From NCBI RefSeq assembly GCF_032062105.1, contig NW_026936399.1:372001-436000 (forward strand): a DNA stretch of 64,000 nucleotides. Direction: 5' to 3'. Below, in pieces: positions 45,026 through 64,000 of this stretch. The translations under genes and the position numbers were made by a program. Within the stretch, counting starts at the first letter, position 1. Each line of letters begins with the position of its first letter. This DNA is from Saccostrea cucullata (Eukaryota). Below the pieces are notes generated by a model. The model made no database searches, was not told the origin of the DNA, and was given only the letters and a program-made list of their open reading frames with translations.

Positions 45026-45106
<81 letters not shown>

Positions 45107-45620
45107 CACATTTTACAACAACTCTTAAACTAACATAACTGCCCTAAGTGAAGAAATATTAATACAGAAAGCACAAAGAAATTCACTTTTACATGGATAC
45201 CCACTTCCGCCCCAGCCCGGGGTTGAACTCTCGACCTTCGGAATCTGTCTCCTAGCAGTGCAGGAACAGCGCGCTCAACCGCTCGGCTATCTAGGCAAGT
45301 AAAAACTTGCTTTCGATGCCGATGGAAATTAAACACCTATTGGCGGCGCTGCCCTACACTACACGGTCATTGAGAATAGAAGTAGGATACAGTTATTTGG
45401 ACATTAGTTTTAACAGAGGATTGTTACCAATACATGTTGTAATGAAATTAATTATTATTTATAAAGCACATTTTACAACAACTCTTAAACTAACATAACT
45501 GCCCTAAGTGAAGAAATATTAATACAGAAAGCACAAAGAAATTCACTTTTTTCATGGATACCCACTTCCGCCCCAGCCCGGGGTTGAACTCTCGACCTTC
45601 GGAATCTGTCTCCTAGCAAT

Positions 45621-45696
<76 letters not shown>
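45026..45696 (-). mobile_element. tRNA-containing 360-bp unit in about 1.44 tandem copies, embedded in a (TA)n microsatellite
   Basis: 45101-45258 is repeated almost exactly at 45461-45618; (TA)n on both sides. Minus strand has A box tagccgagcgg and B box gagttcaacc. Confidence 0.8.
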
Positions 45697-49235: not shown

Positions 49236-50504
49236 TGCATACTCACAAAGATATATCTTATTGACATAAGAATGCTAGATTGTTTGCTATGAAGACTTTT
49301 GATGAACCCCAAAGGTTTGGAAGAAATTAAGCAAAGTCCACACCTTATAATGATAACTTTATATATAATTATACTACGACCAATTCTGACATCTAAAATT
49401 ATTTTGATGTGTTTTATCTGCAATTTAGTTCATCGTAAAATTAATATTAAACAGGGTCAACTTACATACAGGAATATACTATTTACATAAAATGCTTGCT
49501 GATTAAAGGCAATGCATCGAAATAGAAAATTGGAAATATGTGAATTTTGTATGATGAAAGATGTTTCTTAATTGTGTTTTAATGTGAGCATATTTACTTA
49601 AGAATTTAAGATGTCAATACAAGTACAAACACCTTGCTAAATGAAAAACATTTTATTCATAACTTTTGTTCAACATCAAGGATAAGATAAACAGACATTC
49701 ATGTTTTGAATTATCAAAAGTATGTGAATAAAGAATGGGATATTAAGAGTTATTAAACAATCTATGATGCATATTAAGGGGAAAAAACAAGATATATTTT
49801 TGAATGGATGAGGTTTAAGAAGGTTTATACTGATGGGTTTAAATAAAAGAAATACTATTTCAACAGAAAAACAAAAGGGAAATATTCATTTTCTCAAGAC
49901 AACTCATCACAAAATCAAAGTAATGTTCAGTAGCATATTTTAAAGTAACGAAAACATGCTTATTGTACATAAATATTCATTAGATAAAATATTTGTGACT
50001 AAATAAAAGAAAAGGTGATTAATTTTACATTTACTTCTGTAAAAATCCTTGCCATTCAAACAGAATTGAACATAATACATAATACTTATTAGTGTATCTT
50101 GACAAATAATTTCCTTCACGATTGTCATAAATGTAAGAAAATGTTAATACATGAAAAAGCTCAATAGAATTATGCCAAAAACATATGTTTATATAGTTAA
50201 CCAAAATAAATGTAAATGAGATCGTAAAATCTTTCACATCTTGAACACAATTAACAAAGTATTTAAAAAATAACATTTTCATAAGTTTTATTAAAATATA
50301 CTTACCAAGTTGTTAAAAAAGTTGTATTTATCTAACTATTTGAATATTTCCATACTGTATCGTGAAATAACACGATAAAATTTGAAATTAATTTTTTTGA
50401 AAAGAAACTCTGTTCATTTTTATTTTCTTCTGAGTACCAAACTCGTGCATTTACAAACATAAATCAAATGTCAAATGCAAAATGATCATATGATGAGGTA
50501 TAAT

Positions 50505-51280
50505 TGAACCTGAATACTTCTCCTATGTGGACAGACAAAAAGTAACCCCATCTTAATTAATAACAAATCTCATCTGAGTATATCTGTTGTGAGATGTTAC
50601 CTAAGCATAAAAACTAACATCTGAATATCTTTCTTGTGTGAACAGACAAGGTGTAATCTCATCTTCATAACAAATCTCATCTGAATACATCTGATTTGAG
50701 ATATTACCTCTAACATGTGAATTTCTCATCTGAATCATCGTACAGTCTATCTTACCTCATCTAAATAACTAACCTCATCTAAATAAATAACCTCATCTGA
50801 ATAACTAACCTAATCTGAATACCTCTCCAGTCCTTTGTGAGAAGACGAGGGGTAAACTCATCTGATACCATTCCCTTGCGAACAGAAGAGATGTTTCATC
50901 TACAGAACAACTAACCTCAACTGGACACTTTCCTATGTAAACAATCTAAGTGTAACCTCATCTGAATACCTCTTCCATGTGAACATACGAGGCCTGTCTT
51001 CATCTGATTTAATCTCCTGTATGAAAAGACCAGCGGTAACCTCGTCTGATACCTCTCATTTGTTAACAAACGAGAAGTTACATCTTCAGAAAAACTAACC
51101 TTAACTGAATACCTTTCCTGTGTAAACAGTCTTAGTGTAACCTCATCTAAAAAAAAACTCTCTTAAGTGAACCTAAGAGGCCTATCTTCATCTGAATACC
51201 TCTTCTATGTGAACACATGAGGTGTAACCTCATATGATCGTGCCTCTCCTATGTGAACACATGAGGTGTCATCTGATCAT
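50505..51280. repeat. Degenerate tandem repeat with core acctcatctgaatac, in the probable 3'UTR of the cytokine receptor
   Basis: Many ctcatctga cores alternating with tgtgaaca motifs. Confidence 0.8.
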
Positions 51281-51633: not shown

Positions 51634-54600
51634 TCAATCCGTACAGCTATTTATCACATTTTCCCCATAGGAATCCATCTCAAAACCTGTAACATAGGGA
51701 ACTGTACTTTGCGAACAGTCACTTCCTATTGAAAGTGTTCGAGAAGTATCTACAATCGCGTCACTATCACAGGAATTACTTTGTCTCTCAAGTTCTGGAG
51801 TAGGAGGACATGTGTCTAGATTTTCACAATCAGAAGCACAAGTTGAAGTGTAATTAGAACACATCACATGTCTATACCCTCCTGAGATATCCCCCGAGTC
51901 ATCATCAATCATATCATATAATGCACCGCTACCTTCCTGCTCCACTCTACTATAACTGTCAATAGGACTCGAACAGCTACTAGAAATATGAGGTAATTCT
52001 GAGGTGTGATTTACTTTCGTCTTTTCTTCTCCTGGCATTATTGACACATTGCACGTTGTGAGTTCCGAGTGTGTTTGCTTGGGTTTCTTTAACATCATCT
52101 TGAATATAAGTGTTTGTTTGTCGGAGTCAGTCGGTGTAGTAGGCGCTGAGAAGACATCGGATTCACATTTTGTTGACCCAATGCCACTACTGCTGACACT
52201 ATCTCTATCAACTTCCGGTCCTTGTTCTTCAGAAGAAACGGATTCCGGGGAACTATGAGTACCACTGTCACCCATTTCCTAAAAGAAATAATTTAAACAT
52301 CATGAGATATAAATGAAACACCAAATATAACATTTTCCAGTAAATTGATTGAAAGTTTCTGTAGATAAAAATTACATCTAAGAATATGAGTCAATGAATT
52401 TTAAAAAACCGCCCTCTTTAACTCTGAATTATTGAAAAAGTTTCTAAACGATCAGATTTTAACAAATTTCATTCTTGTTCGTTTTAAAATTTTCTATTAA
52501 CAAGTTGACTTGTTATAATGAGATATCGGCAAATAAGAAAAAGAAAGAGTGTCATTTTAAGGATGAGAGAAAAGATCAGTAATTCTAAGGTTAATCAGAG
52601 AAAAGATAAGATTACACCCTTATTTATCATTGATAAGTTCATAAAGTTTATCAAAATATTTTTTTTTACTAATCGTAGTAAATTTTATCTCATGTTTCGC
52701 ATCTTTTTGTACAAAATAATTATACAACAAAATTTTATTTAACCACCCCAAATCATATTTGTTTACTTACACGTATTTCCTTTTCTTCATCTGAAAGTCC
52801 ATTATTATATCCTGGATTCTACAAAATATATTTAGAAATCAATTTTATGATTAATTTTACCATATCAAAAGTAAAATTTATAAACACATCTAAAAAAAAG
52901 TCTGAATATTATGGTAGCGACCTGCTTATGAAGATCATGTTTTTTTTCAAAATGTTTATTGATGCTGTTGTTAACTTGCGAGTCCTACATATTGTTAGCA
53001 TGTTCATTTTAAATTCTTATATAGTTCGTGATTAATTATATATATATACATGTACAAATCAAGGAGACATTAATTAGAGCACTTTTGCAAGATATAATGT
53101 GCATAAATAAATGTTATTCAAAGTGAAATATTAACTGTTGTAAAAGTGAGAAAAATTCCTTGATAACACGATAAATCACTAGTAGATAGAGCTAATAAGA
53201 GGTAATAAAGCATGCCTTAATCTGTACTACAAAAAAGAGTCAAAAGTTAGAAAGAACCAATCGTTAAAAAGTAAATATAACTAAGGGAGAAAAAAGATGT
53301 CGAAAAGAGAAGTTCTATCAGTGCAACGGCTTTACTTACAGTATCCTCTGAGGATAGGGGCTGTTCATAAAAGTCAAATGTTTTTGAGAAATTGAAAAGC
53401 GAAATGCATTTTAAATAGAATTAGTATGGAAGAAGTGATTGAAAAGATCGTACCACATATGATTCTATGTCCGGCATCTTGATGTCAGGTTTTTCAAAAG
53501 TACATTTTCGCTTAATACAGTACGCCATGATTATTCTGTAGAAAAAGTAAAAAAAGGTACTTCAAGAATATTGAATGAAATTTTAGAACAGTATTCAGAC
53601 TTTTACAATTTAAATGAATGTAGAAAATTGCGTTGTGATATTTCTATATTTACATATCAAATATGAACTTTGGCAAATGTCTATTCGATGCAGATTTGAA
53701 ATATCTAAGTATACGCATGATGCACTGAAAATATAATAACCCTTCAAAATCTAAAACAGATAAATCACTTTGCATTATATGCTAAAAGATTAATTTAAGG
53801 AAATTGTTATTAATTCCTTCGTATCCTTGATTTCTTTTGTAAAAAAAAAAGGATGCTCTCTTTTGTATAACATACCACTGTCACTTACATTATAAACACT
53901 GCTAAGATGGACACAAGAATGGCAACTGTAATTGTTTCATCGTCAGCAATAATATCACTCTCTGATAGCATAAAAAAGAAGTTTATAAACATTGAGGGGG
54001 GTCATGACTATTTAATTTTAATTTTAATTTTGAATAAAAAAATAAAAGGTAGTATATAAAGCAAGTACATGCATTAACTTTAAATACAAGTTAAGACTCA
54101 CAATTTTTAATTCTCTTTCAATCCTTTTTTTTTTACCTTGAAATCCGACGGTTTGAATTTCGCTATACACCGTGTTGTTGTTTGCTAGAGTTACTGCCAG
54201 ACAAATATCATATTGCCCTTCAGGACTTATATTTGTTAACGATATATCTTTTACATTGTGTGTGACATTTTCTGTTCTGTTCAATGAAAAATCTGAAAGA
54301 AAATCAATAAACAATAATTTAATACTTAAGCATACGCAAGCAACTTTGAGAAAAACATTTACAATTATCCACTGTAAAAAACGTCCTTTCACTATAAATG
54401 CTAGCAACTTGCTCTGTTTGTTTATATCAAGGATACCTTAAATGGTATTTTGCGTAAAAAGGGTGGGTGAGACACGAAATACAACTTACCATTTGGACAA
54501 CTTATGTTCACATTTCTATGTTTATTATAAAAGACTTGGTAAGTTATTGGTCTGCTCTGATATTGACACACAGATGATACAAGGTCAACTAGCAGTTGTT

Positions 54601-57600
54601 GGTGACCGTTCCTCTGCAAATGTCTGGCACTAAAAGCTAATTTGAAATCTGAAATGCAAAAATTTAAACTTCGTCAGTAAAAGGTGTCTATTCTTAAAGA
54701 AATCATTCGATGAAAATTATTATCAAAAATTCATTCGAATTGCTATTTTGAATAAAATTTTATATCCATAAAATAATAAATTTTTTAAATACTAAAAAAA
54801 ATTGGGAAGGAAATTCTATGTAGGAATTTAACATATATATATTTTTAAATAAAGGTAAAACTAACAAACCGTGGTCGATCTCAAAATTATTAAAAAAGTA
54901 AAATTTAGTGAAAATGTCATGATGAAACAAAACATGGTTACACGAAATAAAATCTTAGTATCAATAGGAACATTATATAATAAAGCTTACTCTCTATACC
55001 TACCACGCTGAGAATAAAGCAATCGATAATAACATGTTGCAAATGTTAGTCCAGATGAGGTCAAATTTTCGAATTGCACAGAGACCCCAAATATCAAATA
55101 TTTGTTGTGTGCTATGTCTGTTAGATGTACACCATTCCCAGGCCTCTGGAAATCTCTCCACTCAATGTCATCCTATATAAAGATTATCTTTATTTAAATA
55201 AGATGAATATGACAATTGATTACTGAAAAAATTAGTTTGTGGAAAAGAAAATGGAAACAACTTTTGTTATCTTCCTTAACTTCTAATTTATCAATTTTTT
55301 TTTATACTTTTAACAGAGGATTTTTATTTTGATAAAGAAAAAATGGAAAGTAAAAAATTTCTCAAAAGGTTAATATAGCGAATGATATTAAATGATTTGA
55401 AATAGTATTTCATGTTCAACAATTAATTCCATAAAATAATAATAATTAATAATAAGCCGATAAAAATGATCATCTTTACAAATCAATTTTTCTGTACCTC
55501 ACACGTTTTTGGATTTTGAGTTTTCTGTGTACACCACATTATTGTCACGGACGTTATAGGTGTGACGTCATCCATCTCCCAAGTGATCCAGTAACCATTT
55601 GTTTTAATTTCTTCAACCATCACAAATAATCCATTTTCTATTTTTTTTAAAAAGCTAATGTTAATCAAAAAAAAGTAGGCATGATTTTTATACTAGATAA
55701 CTACATTTAAATAAAAATTAAATATAAACAAAAAAAAAATCTTACCTTTTTCGTTTATTAAAAGAATTGACGCATTTTCAGAAGGCCCAGCATTATTAAT
55801 ATATGTTAGTGTAGCAGTATAGTTAGAATCAGATATATCAATGGGTATCGTTAAAGATGATTCCTCAGAGGAGAAGTTTCCCGTCCATATTGTATTGCTC
55901 AATTCATCTGAGATGACCACATGAACGCCACAGTCCTCTGCATTCCAATATATTTCCTTTAATGGCTGAAATTTTAAACGAAAATTTAATCAAAAATTTT
56001 TAAAGAAAATATTAATTTATATAAGCTTTTTACATTAATTATAGTGATTTTTAATGCTATACAAAATTTTTTTGTGTGTTATCATGAAAAAAAATCACAA
56101 GCAAGATTTTTAAAAAGAATATACACTTTGGAGTGATTTTTTTGAATCAATTATCAATTAAATCCTAAGTGTGTATAACAAAAAATAATATGCAGCTTTT
56201 TAAAAACTTTCTGAAAAATATGCATTGTGTGGGAATATTTTTTTGTTTGTTAAGATTTCATAAGATTGGCATATCATTAGAAACAATGAAATTAAATTAC
56301 ATAATAATTTTTATCAATTTCACGAAATTTACCTTGTGAAACACAATAAGCCCAGTCTGATTATGAACATAGTATAGGCCTGCTGATGTATCAGGCGCCC
56401 AATATGGAACTAAAACGAATTTCGCTAAATTAATTATGATCATTAATTAAGAAACATTATCAAAAGTATATTTAATAAATAACAGTCTAGTTTTGTTGGT
56501 TCTATAATGTAATCAATCAATTTGCTAAGTTGACCATAATTGTACGCAACTGGCGTCTCGTTTGCTCTAACATCCTTTTTGAAAGATCAGATACCACCTG
56601 ATTTTGCTTGTTTCCTATTCAATTCTTTGCAATTTCATCGAAGCGAAGGTTTGAAAATTTCCAATGCTTACTACTGTATTTGCTTATCCATTAGATCATT
56701 CACTAGTAGATAGATAGAAATGAAAGAGAGCTTAAGATTAGCAATGATTCCATCGTATGACTACTATGGAGTTTACCTTGTGAAAAACAGTAAGTCCAGT
56801 CTGCTTATGAACATAGTACAGACCTGGCGATGTTTCAGGCGCCCAGTAGGGGACTAAAAATAAAATTCATTAAGTTATTTATGTGTAAATCTTCCACAGA
56901 GTTTGATTCTTATACATCGATATAAATCATAAAGACTGAAAAAAATAATAATATTTACTTTGAATATCAAATTTGAATCAAAGGTAATATATATTTTATT
57001 GAATGATTACAATAGAAAAATAATGAATTTACCATCAGGATTGGTTCGAATTTGTTTGGTTAAGACGTCACTCCAATATAAAGAACTTTCTGGTCTTGTT
57101 GTTATTTGTATTTCGTAGTTAGTGAAAGGAATACAATCCCGTAATGTTGTAGATACACTTGTATTCCTACTAGTAAATGTTATCTACATGAGAAAAAATC
57201 GCCATTTTGTAGATCTTGAAATCTTGAATACGCACGCATTAATGACTAGAATTGTGATGCAATATCCTTATAAATATGGATCGAAATATTTTGATACATT
57301 GCTAAATAATTTCTTTTAATAACTTTTCTTTTCATGTATATTACGAATGCAAATAAAGAAGATTTTCAATGATTTGTGATTGGATATGGAATTTATTTCT
57401 CGAGTGGAACAGGATTTTTTAAAGATAAATTTTCACGTGTACAAAACAGGAGTTAAAATATCCAAAAATGTCGCCTCACGAGTGAAACACATTTCATATT
57501 CAACTAAAAAGATTTATTTTTTCTGATTATTACATTGTCTTTGATTTTGTCCTTGAAAATAATATAACAGTTAATTTTCTGACAAGCTCAAATTGAAAAT

Positions 57601-60600
57601 AAGACTATATTTGTAAAATAAGTGGGGTGTCTTAGTAAAAAGAAAATGATGAAGGACTTTGCTTTGTTCATATACCCAATATATTTCTGTATACATAGAA
57701 AATAACAAAGAGAATAGCTAAAATTACCGTTCTTCGACTGCTTTTCCATGAAGCTCGGTATGTTATTCTGTAAATAACGATATCATCAATCTCTGGAATG
57801 TAATTACTAGTATAATCCTCAGGTAGATTCAGAAGTAGTTCTAGTGCGTTGATAGATGGTTTAATTGATACAAAAGGATAAGATAGTTTCACTGAAATGT
57901 AAGGGAAAAGTATGTGTGCTTATACATCAATAAATTTTTTAAATGTAAAAAACAGAGATATTTGAAATTTATTTTTAAAATTCTGAAATTAATTGTTTTT
58001 AAAGAAGATGAAAAGGAAATCATAGAATGGTATTTTTTGCACTGAAGGTTACCTATTCTAGGGATTGTTATGTTGTAGATACGACTAGCCACTCCAATTT
58101 TATTTTTCAGTGTTATATTCATGGTATAATTTGATGATGGATTAAATTTGTCCCAAAAATGTACGTTAACATTCTGATCATCAACTGAATGTAAATTGCA
58201 TCCTGTGATGAAGTAGTGTCCCCCATATTTTGTTGAAAGATTTTCAGGGCAGGGTCTGTATGCAAAAGTCCTGTTTGAAATTTTAAAAAGTACACATACC
58301 CTTTAAAAACAGTTTAAATTGTGATAACAATAAATAATGAATTTGTTTTTTTTTTCTTTCTTAAATATATTTTTATATCAATAATTGTGTATAATATTTT
58401 TCTGCAAACATATTTAAATCAAAACTCAAATCATTTTGAAAATAAAAAATTATATACATTTAAGCATATTGGAAAAAGGAAGCTGAGAGATTGGAAGTGC
58501 GGAGGGGATCATTGGTCGGGTGTAAGTTAAAAAAAAATTTAAATGACTTACTCAATTTTAATTTTTTTTAATAATATACAATGTAAAATTCTTATGAGGA
58601 AAATATTCCATTAATATCCATGCAGATTCTGGAGTCAACAATGATAAAAATTACTGTAAATGGAAATTCGGTTAATGCCTGAGTAATTTCTAACAATTGT
58701 AACACACAAGTATACATTTCAGTTAAAATAATAATTGAAACATATATCTAAAGAGACGTAAGCTTTCTAAATTTTGGAAGAATCCAACAGTGGGACATGG
58801 AGACCGGTCCTTCGGATGAGTTCGTATAAACCGAGGCCCCGTGTTGCAGTTGCTGCTGGCACGATCAAGATCCCTCACTGCTCAATGGCCCTAAGTACCG
58901 AGTACAGGACAAAATTTATAGCTCTCCACCGGCAAGTCTCCATATGAGTGAAAAATACACGAGAGGGACATTAAACAACATACAATCAATAAATTTTGAA
59001 AAAGAGAAATACCATTTTAGCCGAGTTTATCCTTAAATTGTCAATATATATTCATGTTACAATGGGTTTTTGTGTGTTTTATGGTGAATTGTATAATTAT
59101 TCTAGCAAATTTTTATAACCCCCCCCCCCCGCCGACCTGTAAATGTTATATGTAAGGAAATTTCAAAAATTTTACACATTTATATCAACATTGATTAACT
59201 AACTTTTGATCGAGGATATTGTCAATTTCAATCAATTTTGCATATTACATCGAAGTAATATTTTTTAATAGATACAAAGGATTCTTCTGAGTTTTCATAT
59301 GCAGTAAAAGGTTGCCTATGAATTTAGGCTAATAGTTTAATTGGAGACAGAATGATTATTTACCCATCTGTAAAGGTTACTGTCCAGTATGATTCAACTG
59401 AGTTATCAATATTGTTTTTAGGTACTTTCCATGTGCAATGTAAATTATTCCTATCAATTGACACACAGTTTAATTCTTCTGGTAATTGAGGTTTATCTGA
59501 AAAAAGAAAGAACAAGAAATTTGATCAATAGTTACACCAGTCAAATAACCTAAATAAATTTTTTGGGTAATAACAATTGTGATCTATTGACCTTGGATTC
59601 TCAACTTTCAATGGAGAAACTTTAACTGTCACCAACATCTGCCATCGGGAACATCAGTGTTTCAAAATACAACTTGTGTTGAGGTTGCGATTTGAAATTA
59701 CAAAAAAGTCTAAAAATTGTTAATTGTTCTGGGAAAATGGTCAATCCACCGCATGTTGACTGCTTTTCACCGAGATGATACGTAATTAGTTGAATCTTAA
59801 TACTTTGAAAATTCCATGCAAAAAAAAAAAGTTGATCATTGTTAAACACTCCGACTTTATGAAATCCTGCAGACTTGTTAGTTACAGTTACACTCAGTAA
59901 CTTTTAGAACAGCTCTCAGACTGTTATCATTTTAGACTGGGTTTGAATTGCTATAATCTAAATTTGATTCAAGACCTTTTAATATTTTATATTTTTGATG
60001 ACTTTTTATTTAGTAAATTTTCTTGTTTTATCAAGATTCAATGTTGTTTGGATTAAACCCAAAAGATGTATGTACATGCTGTGCATATTAATCTAATACA
60101 AACATAATACTTACAACCAACCATGACTTCCAAAAATGATGAGTCTTCTAAGTTACTTGAGGTAGTAACACAAATATATTCAATAAATGACCCGGTAACA
60201 ATGTTGAAATTTTGTAAATAGACTTTGGTGTTGTCATTGAGACTAAATGGTTCCAATCGTTCACAACCAACTTGTGGTAAACATTTATTTAAATGTAAAT
60301 CATAAATGGATGCGTTAGATGATCCAAGGGAACAAGATATTGGCAGTGAACTATTAACTTCTACGTAGTTTAATTTTGAGGGTGATATCACTGGAAAAGA
60401 AAAAATATTTAATTGTAAGGTTAAAATTAATTTTTTGCAATTTTTTTTATCTAATAGGAGTTAAAACTTCTAAAAATGTAATTCTTATAAACAAATCATT
60501 TACGCAAGTGAAAAAACCCAATTGGCATTTGTTACAAAATAAACAAAAATCTCAGATTGATATTTTGCTAAATTGTGTGCATAATGCATTTACTTACTAG

Positions 60601-60673
60601 TTTGTGCTAAGGTAAACATAGATGTAAGGGTCGAAAAAAGAGAAGACTGTAAGACGAATTGTGGTTTCTTCAT
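51634..60673 (-). CDS. Class I cytokine receptor, gp130/Domeless-like (signal peptide, Ig, cytokine-binding module, 3 FN3, TM, Box1), about 935 aa
   Basis: Phase-consistent GT-AG exons: 60673-60598, 60390-60115, 59496-59364, 58270-58053, 57891-57728, 57183-57033, [56853-56777 or 56409-56333], 55965-55746, 55637-55498, 55172-55004, 54648-54490, 54292-54137, 53961-53889, 53535-53454, 53360-53340, 52818-52771, 52278-51634 (2808 nt). Motifs: 'YKPQLPEELNCVSIDRNNLHCTW'; WSxWS-like 'SLYWSD'; TM 'ITVAILVSILAVFIIIIMAYCI'; Box1-like 'PDIKMPD'. Confidence 0.88.
58790..58992 (+). mobile_element. 5'-truncated SINE-like element in a receptor intron
   Basis: GC-richer block with ggtccttcggatg...taaaccgaggccccgtgt and the tail gggacattaaacaacatacaatcaat, resembling molluscan SINE 3' ends. 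Confidence 0.55.
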
Positions 60674-61664: not shown

Positions 61665-62020
61665 AATACCCCCTGCTTGAAAACTTGGAGAGTATATAGT
61701 GATTAGGATATCCGTCTGTCTGTCTGTCTGATAAGCATTGGTGTACCTATCTCTTATCCACAACTCTTCCTATACATGTACCACTGAATGAAATTTAATG
61801 CCACTTTCACAGATTCTTTGTTTAGAAGGTGCCATTTTCACCTCCTATTTTACTTCTTGATCGGAAACATATTTTGAGTTTCTCATATTAAAACATTGAC
61901 GCTGCCGTTTTTGTATGATAATGAAGGGCACCTATCTCTTATCCGTAACTCCTCCTATACCGCTAAATACAATTTTCTGATACCTTCACAGATTCTTCAT
62001 TATATAATACCATTGTGCAC
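61665..62020. mobile_element. Helentron/HINE remnant
   Basis: tacccc...gagtatat start; (CTGT)n microsatellite; two copies of tatctcttatcc-caactc-tcctatac. Confidence 0.6.
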
Positions 62021-62300: not shown

Positions 62301-62519
62301 CATAGTTAGTTTCCTTGGCTTACTGTGAGAAAGAAGGGTTCAAAATTGTATGTATACAAAATTTCAAGTGATTGTATTTCAAACCACACAATGGTTGATT
62401 TCAGGGGTAAAAATTAAAGATATTTGAAAAAAAAGTCAATAGTGGAACATTTGGGATGGTAGAAATCCAAAAATCTGATGACATATGTTTGATTTGACAG
62501 GGCTATTTCCTCATGTAAA

Positions 62520-63415
62520 CATCTACATCGACACAATTGCTTTAGGTTTCACAATTCTATCATAAGGAGATATATAAGGGGTGGAGTTACATGTAGCAGG
62601 AGACTCATGCTTAGCCCCGATAGCTGGTTCCGAGATTGGTTCAACAGAATTCAGAGGACTAGACTTGACTGGAGGGTGAAGTAGAGGGTTCTGAGAAACT
62701 GACAATATTGAAATCTGGTGTATCAGGCTCAAATATTTCTTATGACTGGATCAGATATCGTCTGTTCCTCCGGTATAATGCTCCCTCAGTGCTTTTAACT
62801 GCGTATGACATCTCTTCCTCGTCTTTGGTGACTATTCCTTGTGTCCAGTGTTTCCCTTCTTATATTGTCTCCTACTGGAAGGGATGGTAGAGGCTTAACA
62901 CTGAGATCAAAGTAATCTTTCTGTTTCTTTCTTTCTGCTTCCATCAGTTCCTTAACACTGACTGGCACCTTTGGTTTTAGCTCACCTGGAACTACTGTAA
63001 ATATAAACCTTAACTTGTGACTCATTAATAGTTGGACAGGCGAGTATCATAGGCTTAAAGGCGTTGTCCTATATTCTAGTAGTCTTATATATAAACTTTC
63101 TCATCTGCCTTGCTCTTATCAAAGATTTTTTTGGTATTCTGTATTGTTTTCTTCGCTAACCTAGTGGACTGTGGATACTTTTGACTGAAAGTGGCATTGT
63201 TAAAGTCATACTTCTGGGCAAATATGGAGAAGTCCTGGCTTGCGTATTGTAGATCAATCTTCGATACGACTTTCCGTTGAATACCAAGCCTACTTCTTCA
63301 TTTTCTGTACGACAGCTTGACTGGTTGTCTTGTGTAGTGTATCTACTGTGGTAATCAACTACCAACAGGTCCTCCTGGTTGTTCCATGTGAACAAATCTG
63401 TAGCTATGTTGTCTG
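62520..63415 (-). mobile_element. Ty3/Gypsy integrase relic
   Basis: 'DLFTWNNQEDLLVVDYHSRY', 'KYPQST', 'QKDYFDLSVKPLPSLPVGDNIR' and terminal 'SPYDRIVKP'; multiple frameshifts. Confidence 0.8.
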
Positions 63416-64000
63416 CAAATGGGACAAATATATATAATATCTCTTGGAATATCGGTTTTAGCTTTATTGCGCCCTAAAAATAATGATCAAAAAGTTTTGA
63501 AACTGGCTTAAATATTAGTTAAATAAATGACTCTCATTGGCATGAAGGAGTTCGAGTTTTTCAACAGAAAAAGCCTCAAAATTGTACATTTCAAGGGTGA
63601 TTTTCCTTTAGAAAAGCGTTAATTTTTTGATAACATAACAAATCACATAACGATGCCTGTAGACCATGTTATCTGAAAGAAAATTCCTTTGAAAACTGCA
63701 ACTTTTTAAGAAAATACGGGAAAATGACTTTATGTCATAATTAGCATTTAAAACCACAAATATATATATTATATATTTTACACCAGTTTCATTTTTTAGA
63801 AAATCACAGGGCAAAATTTGTATGGAAACCATACTTTCTTCTTTATGCTTACATCATGTTTCCTTACAAGTATTTTAGATTTCAAAATTATAAACATGTA
63901 CTTGCTACGATAATGGATAAATAAAACTGAAATGTTCAAACAGCTTTTTTCATTTTTCAAAGTAGAAATGCGGATTCGTTCCGCGTCTGCCTCTAAAAAT

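Follow-up and report, generated by a model that had tools for sequence, protein, structure and literature searches.

In human gp130, exon 9 has been addressed with splice-site oligonucleotides; it covers a stretch and has phases equal to those of the oyster exons described below, its skipping gives a soluble D1-D3 form called gp130-RAPS, and cycloheximide did not raise the level of this skip form (PMC10526877, available text). In oysters, the AOX gene of Crassostrea virginica has a duplicated exon 10 that is used alternatively, one copy being conserved and the other derived (PMC5589949, available text).

An earlier note on the 64,000-nt stretch of Saccostrea cucullata DNA analysed here (the window) had drawn attention to two duplicated exons, A and B, in a cytokine receptor gene. 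They are a real, correctly described and young mutually exclusive exon pair at the position of gp130 exon 9. Their alternative use is already annotated in RefSeq, without comment, isoform X1 of the gene carrying A and isoform X2 carrying B. Neither this pair nor the capture of an allelic exon was the subject of any of the titles and abstract openings listed in literature searches, and supplementary gene lists could name the pair.

The receptor gene and its exon model

The coding model comprises 16 exons on the minus strand (60673-51634) and gives an open frame of 928 amino acids with either A alone or B alone. The start codon and a likely signal peptide lie in e2 (60598..60673), followed by the Ig-like domain D1 in e3 (60115..60390), the two halves of D2 in e4 (59364..59496) and e5 (58053..58270), and the two halves of D3 in e6 (57728..57891) and e7 (57033..57183). 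Exon e4, with the Cys pair of the cytokine-binding module, matched IL6Ra-bind at E 0.06, which is below cut-off, and e7 contains half of a WSxWS motif (Y-W-S-D) and a phase 1 donor. Downstream of the exon pair, e9 (55746..55965) encodes the remainder of D4, e10-e13 (55637-55498, 55172-55004, 54648-54490 and 54292-54137) encode D5 and D6, e14-e15 (53961-53889 and 53535-53454) the transmembrane helix and a Box1-like stretch, and e16-e17 (52818-52771 and 52278-51634) the cytoplasmic tail.

Exon e2 is missing from the RefSeq model, and the RefSeq proteins begin at the end of e3 and thus lack the signal peptide and Ig domain (window 60673-60115). The exons for both are encoded in the window and are spliced in RNA contigs from a close relative, in which e2 is joined to e3; e2 also matches the N-termini of the proteins P0003 and P0004. 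Directly after the Box1-like stretch lies an in-frame micro-exon of 21 nt (53340..53360, minus strand), alternatively included in three oysters: it is present in X1 and absent from X2 of S. cucullata, S. echinata and Ostrea edulis in RefSeq, which makes it a better conserved isoform switch than the A/B pair, and it is skipped in those contigs of the relative that were listed.

The translation of one window exon was a 100% match to a S. cucullata RefSeq protein, and orthologues were found in S. echinata (74%), O. edulis (54%) and Magallana gigas (48%). A single-sequence PDB search with the receptor gave no matches; a profile of 38 relatives had gp130 as its best match (E 5.4e-70). The predicted structure of the S. 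echinata orthologue (mean pLDDT 69.7, with a disordered tail) consists of an Ig domain, a cytokine-binding module, three membrane-proximal FNIII domains and one transmembrane helix, and its best Foldseek match was gp130 over the full ectodomain (E 7.6e-28). By this predicted architecture the gene is a gp130- or Domeless-type receptor. It is not filed as a gp130 orthologue because the full WSxWS motif and any YxxQ are lacking: only the first half, W-S-D/E, occurs in D3 of the four oyster proteins compared (4/4), and no YxxQ STAT3 docking site was found in any of their four tails. A P-x-I-x-x-P-D-I stretch aligns loosely to the gp130 Box1. No IL6-like ligand has been found in molluscs, according to the available text of PMC13203501.

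The N-terminal ectodomain (e3-e6, 60390-57728) diverges faster than the tail, with 35-38 differences between window and relative in 252-275 nt of e3 compared with 18/420 in e17, and with identities to S. echinata of 58-60% compared with 81-94%. Degenerate repeats of a 42-nt unit lie downstream of the stop (50500-51280) and are likely 3' UTR, because RNA contigs cover the region from 51000 on. Very high-copy interspersed repeats occupy introns at 58780-58960 and 61770-62000, with contig depth up to 64,000. Elsewhere in the window, a 134-codon frame with one hydrophobic helix (47375-46974, minus strand; Pfam ISK_Channel E 0.041, below cut-off) is possibly a KCNE-like single-exon gene, a 96-99% identical duplicate spaced by 360 nt (45096-45262 and 45456-45623) lies between two AT microsatellites, and open-frame pieces at 62500-63470 and 39940-40245 (minus strand) resemble transposon remnants, putatively integrase-like and recombinase-like.

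Anatomy of the exon pair

Exon A (56777..56853) and exon B (56333..56409), both on the minus strand and both 77 nt long, take equal positions at the start of D4, covering the linker and strands A and B. Each is preceded by TTTTAG and followed by GTAAA. Both run from phase 1 to phase 0, between e7, which ends at 57033 in phase 1, and e9, which begins at 55965 in phase 0. In the gene model, inclusion of both exons gives a product of 392 amino acids that ends 4 nt into e9 and consists of D1-D3, exon A and 27 new residues, and skipping of both gives 359 amino acids, ending 59 nt into e9, with D1-D3 and 20 new residues. The earlier description of two minus-strand 77-nt exons with AG/GT sites and given peptides, of which both or neither would break the frame, is therefore accurate in each of these points.

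A recount agreed with the 12 differences in 77 positions previously reported, of which 8 are synonymous and 4 non-synonymous (E/D, P/A, K/N and T/I). By the Nei-Gojobori method, pS was 0.43 and pN 0.067, with dN/dS 0.11 and Fisher p 0.0005, and purifying selection on both A and B, as had been proposed, is supported by the comparison. The K/N difference removes an N-Q-T sequon from A, so that the sequon occurs at residue 356 in the B form only.

The introns around the pair measure 179, 367 and 367 nt. The intron between A and B (56410..56776, minus strand) is single-copy in the genome search and has a GC content of 0.31, compared with 0.18 and 0.20 in the neighbouring introns. No homology among the three introns rose above shuffled sequences (local p 0.12-1.0; globally, 64-464 of 500 shuffles were as good), as the reported divergence of the flanking introns had implied, and the equal lengths of 367 nt, considered as a trace of duplication, apparently reflect chance. 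Within the gene body, no other non-simple two-copy repeat of this kind occurs (the pair is family D10, 86% over 88 nt), and a search of the window's own genome with exon B returned exactly two matches, A and B themselves.

Devices that might keep the two exons apart were sought as well. Judged by intron length and splice sites, neither a close branch point nor a U2/U12 mismatch was found: the separating intron measures 367 nt, and all introns are GT-AG with GTAAA donors. A candidate stem of 20-22 nt pairing 57019-56998 with 56521-56500 would loop out exon A, with pair probabilities mostly above 0.8, and a coarser test of stems gave z about -2.8 on 15 crude shuffles, as one of 7 pairs. RNA pairing was rejected as an exclusion device, since 200 of 1000 shuffles equalled the stem and 1 of 13 control intron pairs scored higher; the fold of the A/B region had a z of -0.17. 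As the search revealed neither a steric nor a U12 device and no significant RNA stem, we attribute exclusivity to the reading frame, which would enforce it through likely removal of the A+B and skip products by nonsense-mediated decay. Stops lying so far upstream of 8 coding junctions would make decay targets by the usual rule, as established outside oysters.

Correspondence with gp130 exon 9

In the S. echinata model, the exon spans the linker from D3 to D4 together with the opening two strands of D4. The N-Q-T sequon falls between strands 350-353 and 357-361, in the predicted A-B turn of D4, and is therefore likely exposed. In a profile alignment to mouse gp130, the exon aligns to the stretch after the WSDWS motif. 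By alignment, the oyster exon thus corresponds in position to exon 9 of human gp130. The site had been placed at the junction after the cytokine-binding module, and both model and alignment put it at the D3/D4 join. Human IL6ST exon 9 likewise lies at the D3/D4 join, starts in phase 1 and ends with a Lys codon in phase 0, and its skipping likewise shifts the frame to a stop in the next exon and leaves D1-D3 (PMC10526877, available text). The analogy to sgp130 drawn in the earlier note is apt, and closer than its author could know, because gp130 exon 9, whose skipping gives gp130-RAPS, has the same stretch and phases. In contrast to human IL6ST, whose exon 9 is single-copy, the oyster contigs contained no skip form among the joints listed, and the oyster receptor is without a full WSxWS or YxxQ.

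RNA contigs from a close relative

None of the RNA runs contained the window's own sequence. The RNA consists of assembled contigs from a close relative, taken from two runs of two studies and sharing a fraction of 0.05 of the window's words. These contigs confirm most of the predicted junctions of the gene. Over a narrow stretch around the pair, 7 records of the first run and 13 of the second aligned, and the joints listed were e7-A, A-e9, e7-B and B-e9 (4/4). Those of B occurred in both runs and those of A in the first, where the presence of A in two short records was derived from summed depth (8.85 + 5.2 = 14) and record positions; the lack of contig cover over A in the second run is no evidence. 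Both these joints and the RefSeq isoforms (X1 with A, X2 with B) agree with single use of each exon at the predicted junctions. Among 56 candidate short transcript-derived proteins, none covered residues 150-330, and the exon pattern was found in no metagenome contig.

None of the four joints listed was of the A-B or skip (e7-e9) kind, in contigs that drop rare isoforms, and the soluble decoy that the earlier note had considered possible through double inclusion or skipping was thus not encountered. A single exon of such phase already permits a skip form, so that no duplication is needed for one, and in the oyster gene both stops precede the e9-e10 junction by 150-210 nt and are followed by 8 coding junctions. 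That the pair exists for the sake of a soluble D1-D3 decoy, like gp130-RAPS, is accordingly most unlikely, even though the position and phases of the exon agree with those of gp130 exon 9, the out-of-frame products would retain D1-D3 with 20 new residues (skip) or with A and 27 (A+B), and cycloheximide left the human skip form unraised (PMC10526877, available text).

Two ectodomain types in the relative

The exon content of the relative's sequences was read from RNA contigs, which fall into two types. The B-using contig was identical in both runs and differed from the window at 15/141 positions in e7 and 21/142 in e9, but at only 2/78 in B (Fisher p 0.0065), with counts that leave out about 30 nt at piece ends, including the N codon of the relative's B and the K codon of A. 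For silent sites alone, the closeness of B relative to its flanks had p 0.016. The flanking exons of the B-type are 11-15% diverged from the window; its contig carries 8 different letters where e7 ends and is too diverged to align to e6. Contigs using A differed from the window at 6/152 positions in e7 and 5-7/69 in e9 and, by depth arithmetic, align to e6.

Five private replacements of the B-type were listed (T318A, G378S, H380N, L387V and S401A). At 4 of these 5 sites the B-type residue also occurs in S. echinata, in O. edulis or in both, and at the listed sites the window and the A-type share the other residue; the B-type therefore appears to have split off before the window's species and the relative parted. 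Loose contig ends into e6 agree with this grouping, and on both grounds the window groups with the A-type in e6-e9.

Relationships change along the gene. Over e3-e5 there are differences from the window that the two types have in common, a single shared contig of 839 nt carries the whole depth from e13 to mid-e17, and in the last part of e17 the two types part again. Both types occur in both runs, the B-type being about 2-4 times deeper. One copy of the gene is present in the window's own genome assembly, and no second near copy was found there. This changing genealogy is more readily explained, we infer, by alleles that carry an old or introgressed D3-D4 block than by paralogues or a mixture of two species.

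Exon choice in the relative's contigs follows haplotype, and the free isoform switching within one gene copy that had been proposed is not supported. RefSeq puts both isoforms on one gene, but in the relative's contigs A and B go with separate haplotypes. The reads behind the two RefSeq isoforms may come from diverged animals, and the isoforms are for this reason not independent proof of switching within one copy.

The presence of both types in both runs, the depth of the B-type and the renewed parting in e17 would also suit two paralogues in the relative, one with B and one with A, homogenised in their 3' part, with the window representing the ancestral two-exon state. Separation of splice forms between gene copies is a known process, with 11 events described in the available text of PMC4494069. 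Contig depth is, however, no measure of copy number, the window's genome has a single copy, the 839-nt contig is shared, and the window groups with the A-type in e6-e9 rather than outside both types, so that this explanation appears improbable.

An assembly artefact, in which both alleles of a heterozygous animal would have been placed one after the other, is very unlikely. The 1.17-Gb assembly is fragmented (23,869 contigs) and B is indeed close to the exon of the other type, but no flank is duplicated, e7 and e9 are A-type at diagnostic sites and unmixed, the pair stands on a 712-kb contig, and no B-type copy exists elsewhere in the window's own genome.

The pair and its sequon in other oysters

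Conservation of the pair was judged from proteins of S. echinata, O. edulis and M. gigas. All had one exon form only (2 S. echinata, 2 O. edulis and 8 M. gigas-cluster proteins); 7 of 15 listed M. gigas-cluster members (P0101-P0106 and P0110) are unrelated and were left out of the counts, and the C. virginica pieces P0009, P0010 and P0113 fall outside the exon. The check for the pair in orthologs that the earlier note proposed had a mixed outcome: the relative's RNA contains both exon sequences, and the proteins of the three other oysters show no pair, which agrees in part with one of the note's own refuting conditions, a second copy not conserved in relatives. The tandem paralogue upstream, at contig positions about 447600-453600 on the same strand and 12-18 kb beyond the window, is about 40% identical (in D2); its A/B position is taken by one exon only, and the profile revealed no transmembrane exon in it.

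The S. echinata exon, in both isoforms, is A-like at E and P, yet contains N-Q-T, and M. gigas has N-I-T in the sequon columns of all 8 orthologous proteins listed; O. edulis is without the sequon. Given the first two, the sequon is probably ancestral and was lost from A by the N to K change. The glycosylation difference between A and B had been noticed correctly, but outgroups make it a loss in A instead of a gain in B. A and B have in common an L and a V at positions occupied by I/F and L in the three outgroups, and the A/B split therefore appears to postdate the parting from S. echinata. Within the M. gigas cluster, none of 30 exon residues differed in the 7 other orthologues (7/7), compared with 5-7/73 in e9.

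Origin of the pair

Our preferred reading, to which we give a probability of roughly 0.45, is that A and B are two old alleles of one exon that became joined in tandem on one chromosome. The two ectodomain lineages would be alleles of one locus, as the shared 839-nt contig of membrane and tail exons suggests, and unequal recombination or template-switch repair would have brought a short B-carrying tract of the other type into an A-type chromosome. Two full-length receptors would then come from the window's gene, distinguished by 4 residues and by one likely N-glycan at the A-B turn of D4, and one chromosome would gain what otherwise needs a heterozygote.

Silent divergence between A and B (8/18.5) matches that between the B-type and the window's flanks (13/35.3, at the listed central sites only; Fisher p 0.77), so that the age of the two exons appears to equal that of the two lineages. 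The link between exon use and type, and a B exon too close to the other type, both follow directly from the taking in of an allelic exon, and the mosaic of shared e3-e5, split e6-e9 and merged e13-e17 is that expected of recombining alleles. Against it, conservation of the exon beyond its flanks in M. gigas weakens the 2/78 contrast, and no intron homology marks a junction. Since A-type sequence flanks B on either side in the window, the taking in of B would require an island insertion or two crossovers.

The main competitor is an ordinary tandem duplication after the S. echinata split and before the types parted, with every haplotype carrying A and B and the choice between them cis-biased or regulated by tissue or stress. 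It would account for the dN/dS of 0.11, two intact sets of splice sites, both RefSeq isoforms on the window's gene, the constraint on the exon in M. gigas and the L and V that A and B share against the outgroup I/F and L; the fully erased intron homology fits an old event, and oyster AOX offers a precedent (PMC5589949, available text). Yet each type must then silence a different copy, B must stay within 2/78 while 37% of the listed flank silent sites changed, no contig joins one type to both exons, and the RefSeq evidence may come from diverged reads (0.05 of words shared; a model without e2-e3). We consider it a serious but rather unlikely alternative. Two or fewer changes in 77 nt have a probability of 0.014 to 0.0004 under 10-15% neutral change; whether captured or duplicated long ago, the window's B is, on the sequence comparison, not a long-dead copy.

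If two alleles were joined, a long-lived polymorphism of the ligand-binding D3-D4 region, older than the species that carry it, may have been turned into splicing, giving glycan-bearing and glycan-free receptors from a permanent one-exon heterozygote; we regard this wider claim as tentative and somewhat doubtful.

Comparison with known systems

Haplotype-linked exon use, with a likely origin from two old alleles, is better supported for this locus than a regulated switch or a decoy. As a plain mutually exclusive pair, A and B add another young example, which RefSeq already contains implicitly. Should the joining of two alleles be true, the locus offers a datable route to alternative splicing, in which the copies diverged before their tandem placement, and suggests that an oyster receptor has old ectodomain haplotypes. 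The age of the human gp130 decoy design becomes testable in a mollusc, because the pair marks the exon that makes the human decoy.

Like other mutually exclusive homologous exons, A and B stand in tandem with equal length and phase, intact splice sites and low dN/dS, and one is used at a time; both or neither breaks the frame. In mosquito ace-1, a duplication of the whole gene fixes a heterozygote by placing two alleles on one chromosome. The oyster locus would have in common with ace-1 the two alleles on one chromosome, and would differ in that a single exon is concerned and the outcome is resolved by splicing. Most described homologous exon pairs are ancient and conserved (PMC4494069, available text), whereas A/B is young, seen in one oyster lineage and, in the relative, haplotype-linked. 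AOX exon 10 is similarly a tandem exon copy used alternatively in an oyster gene, but it is terminal, with both forms in all organs and a stress switch (PMC5589949, available text), whereas A/B is internal and frame-breaking, and any regulation of it is putative. In the isoform separation that follows gene duplication, each version keeps one exon, as the two types here would (Abascal 2015, PMC4494069, available text); the joining of two alleles would reverse that process, leading from two versions to one two-exon gene, and would do so between alleles.
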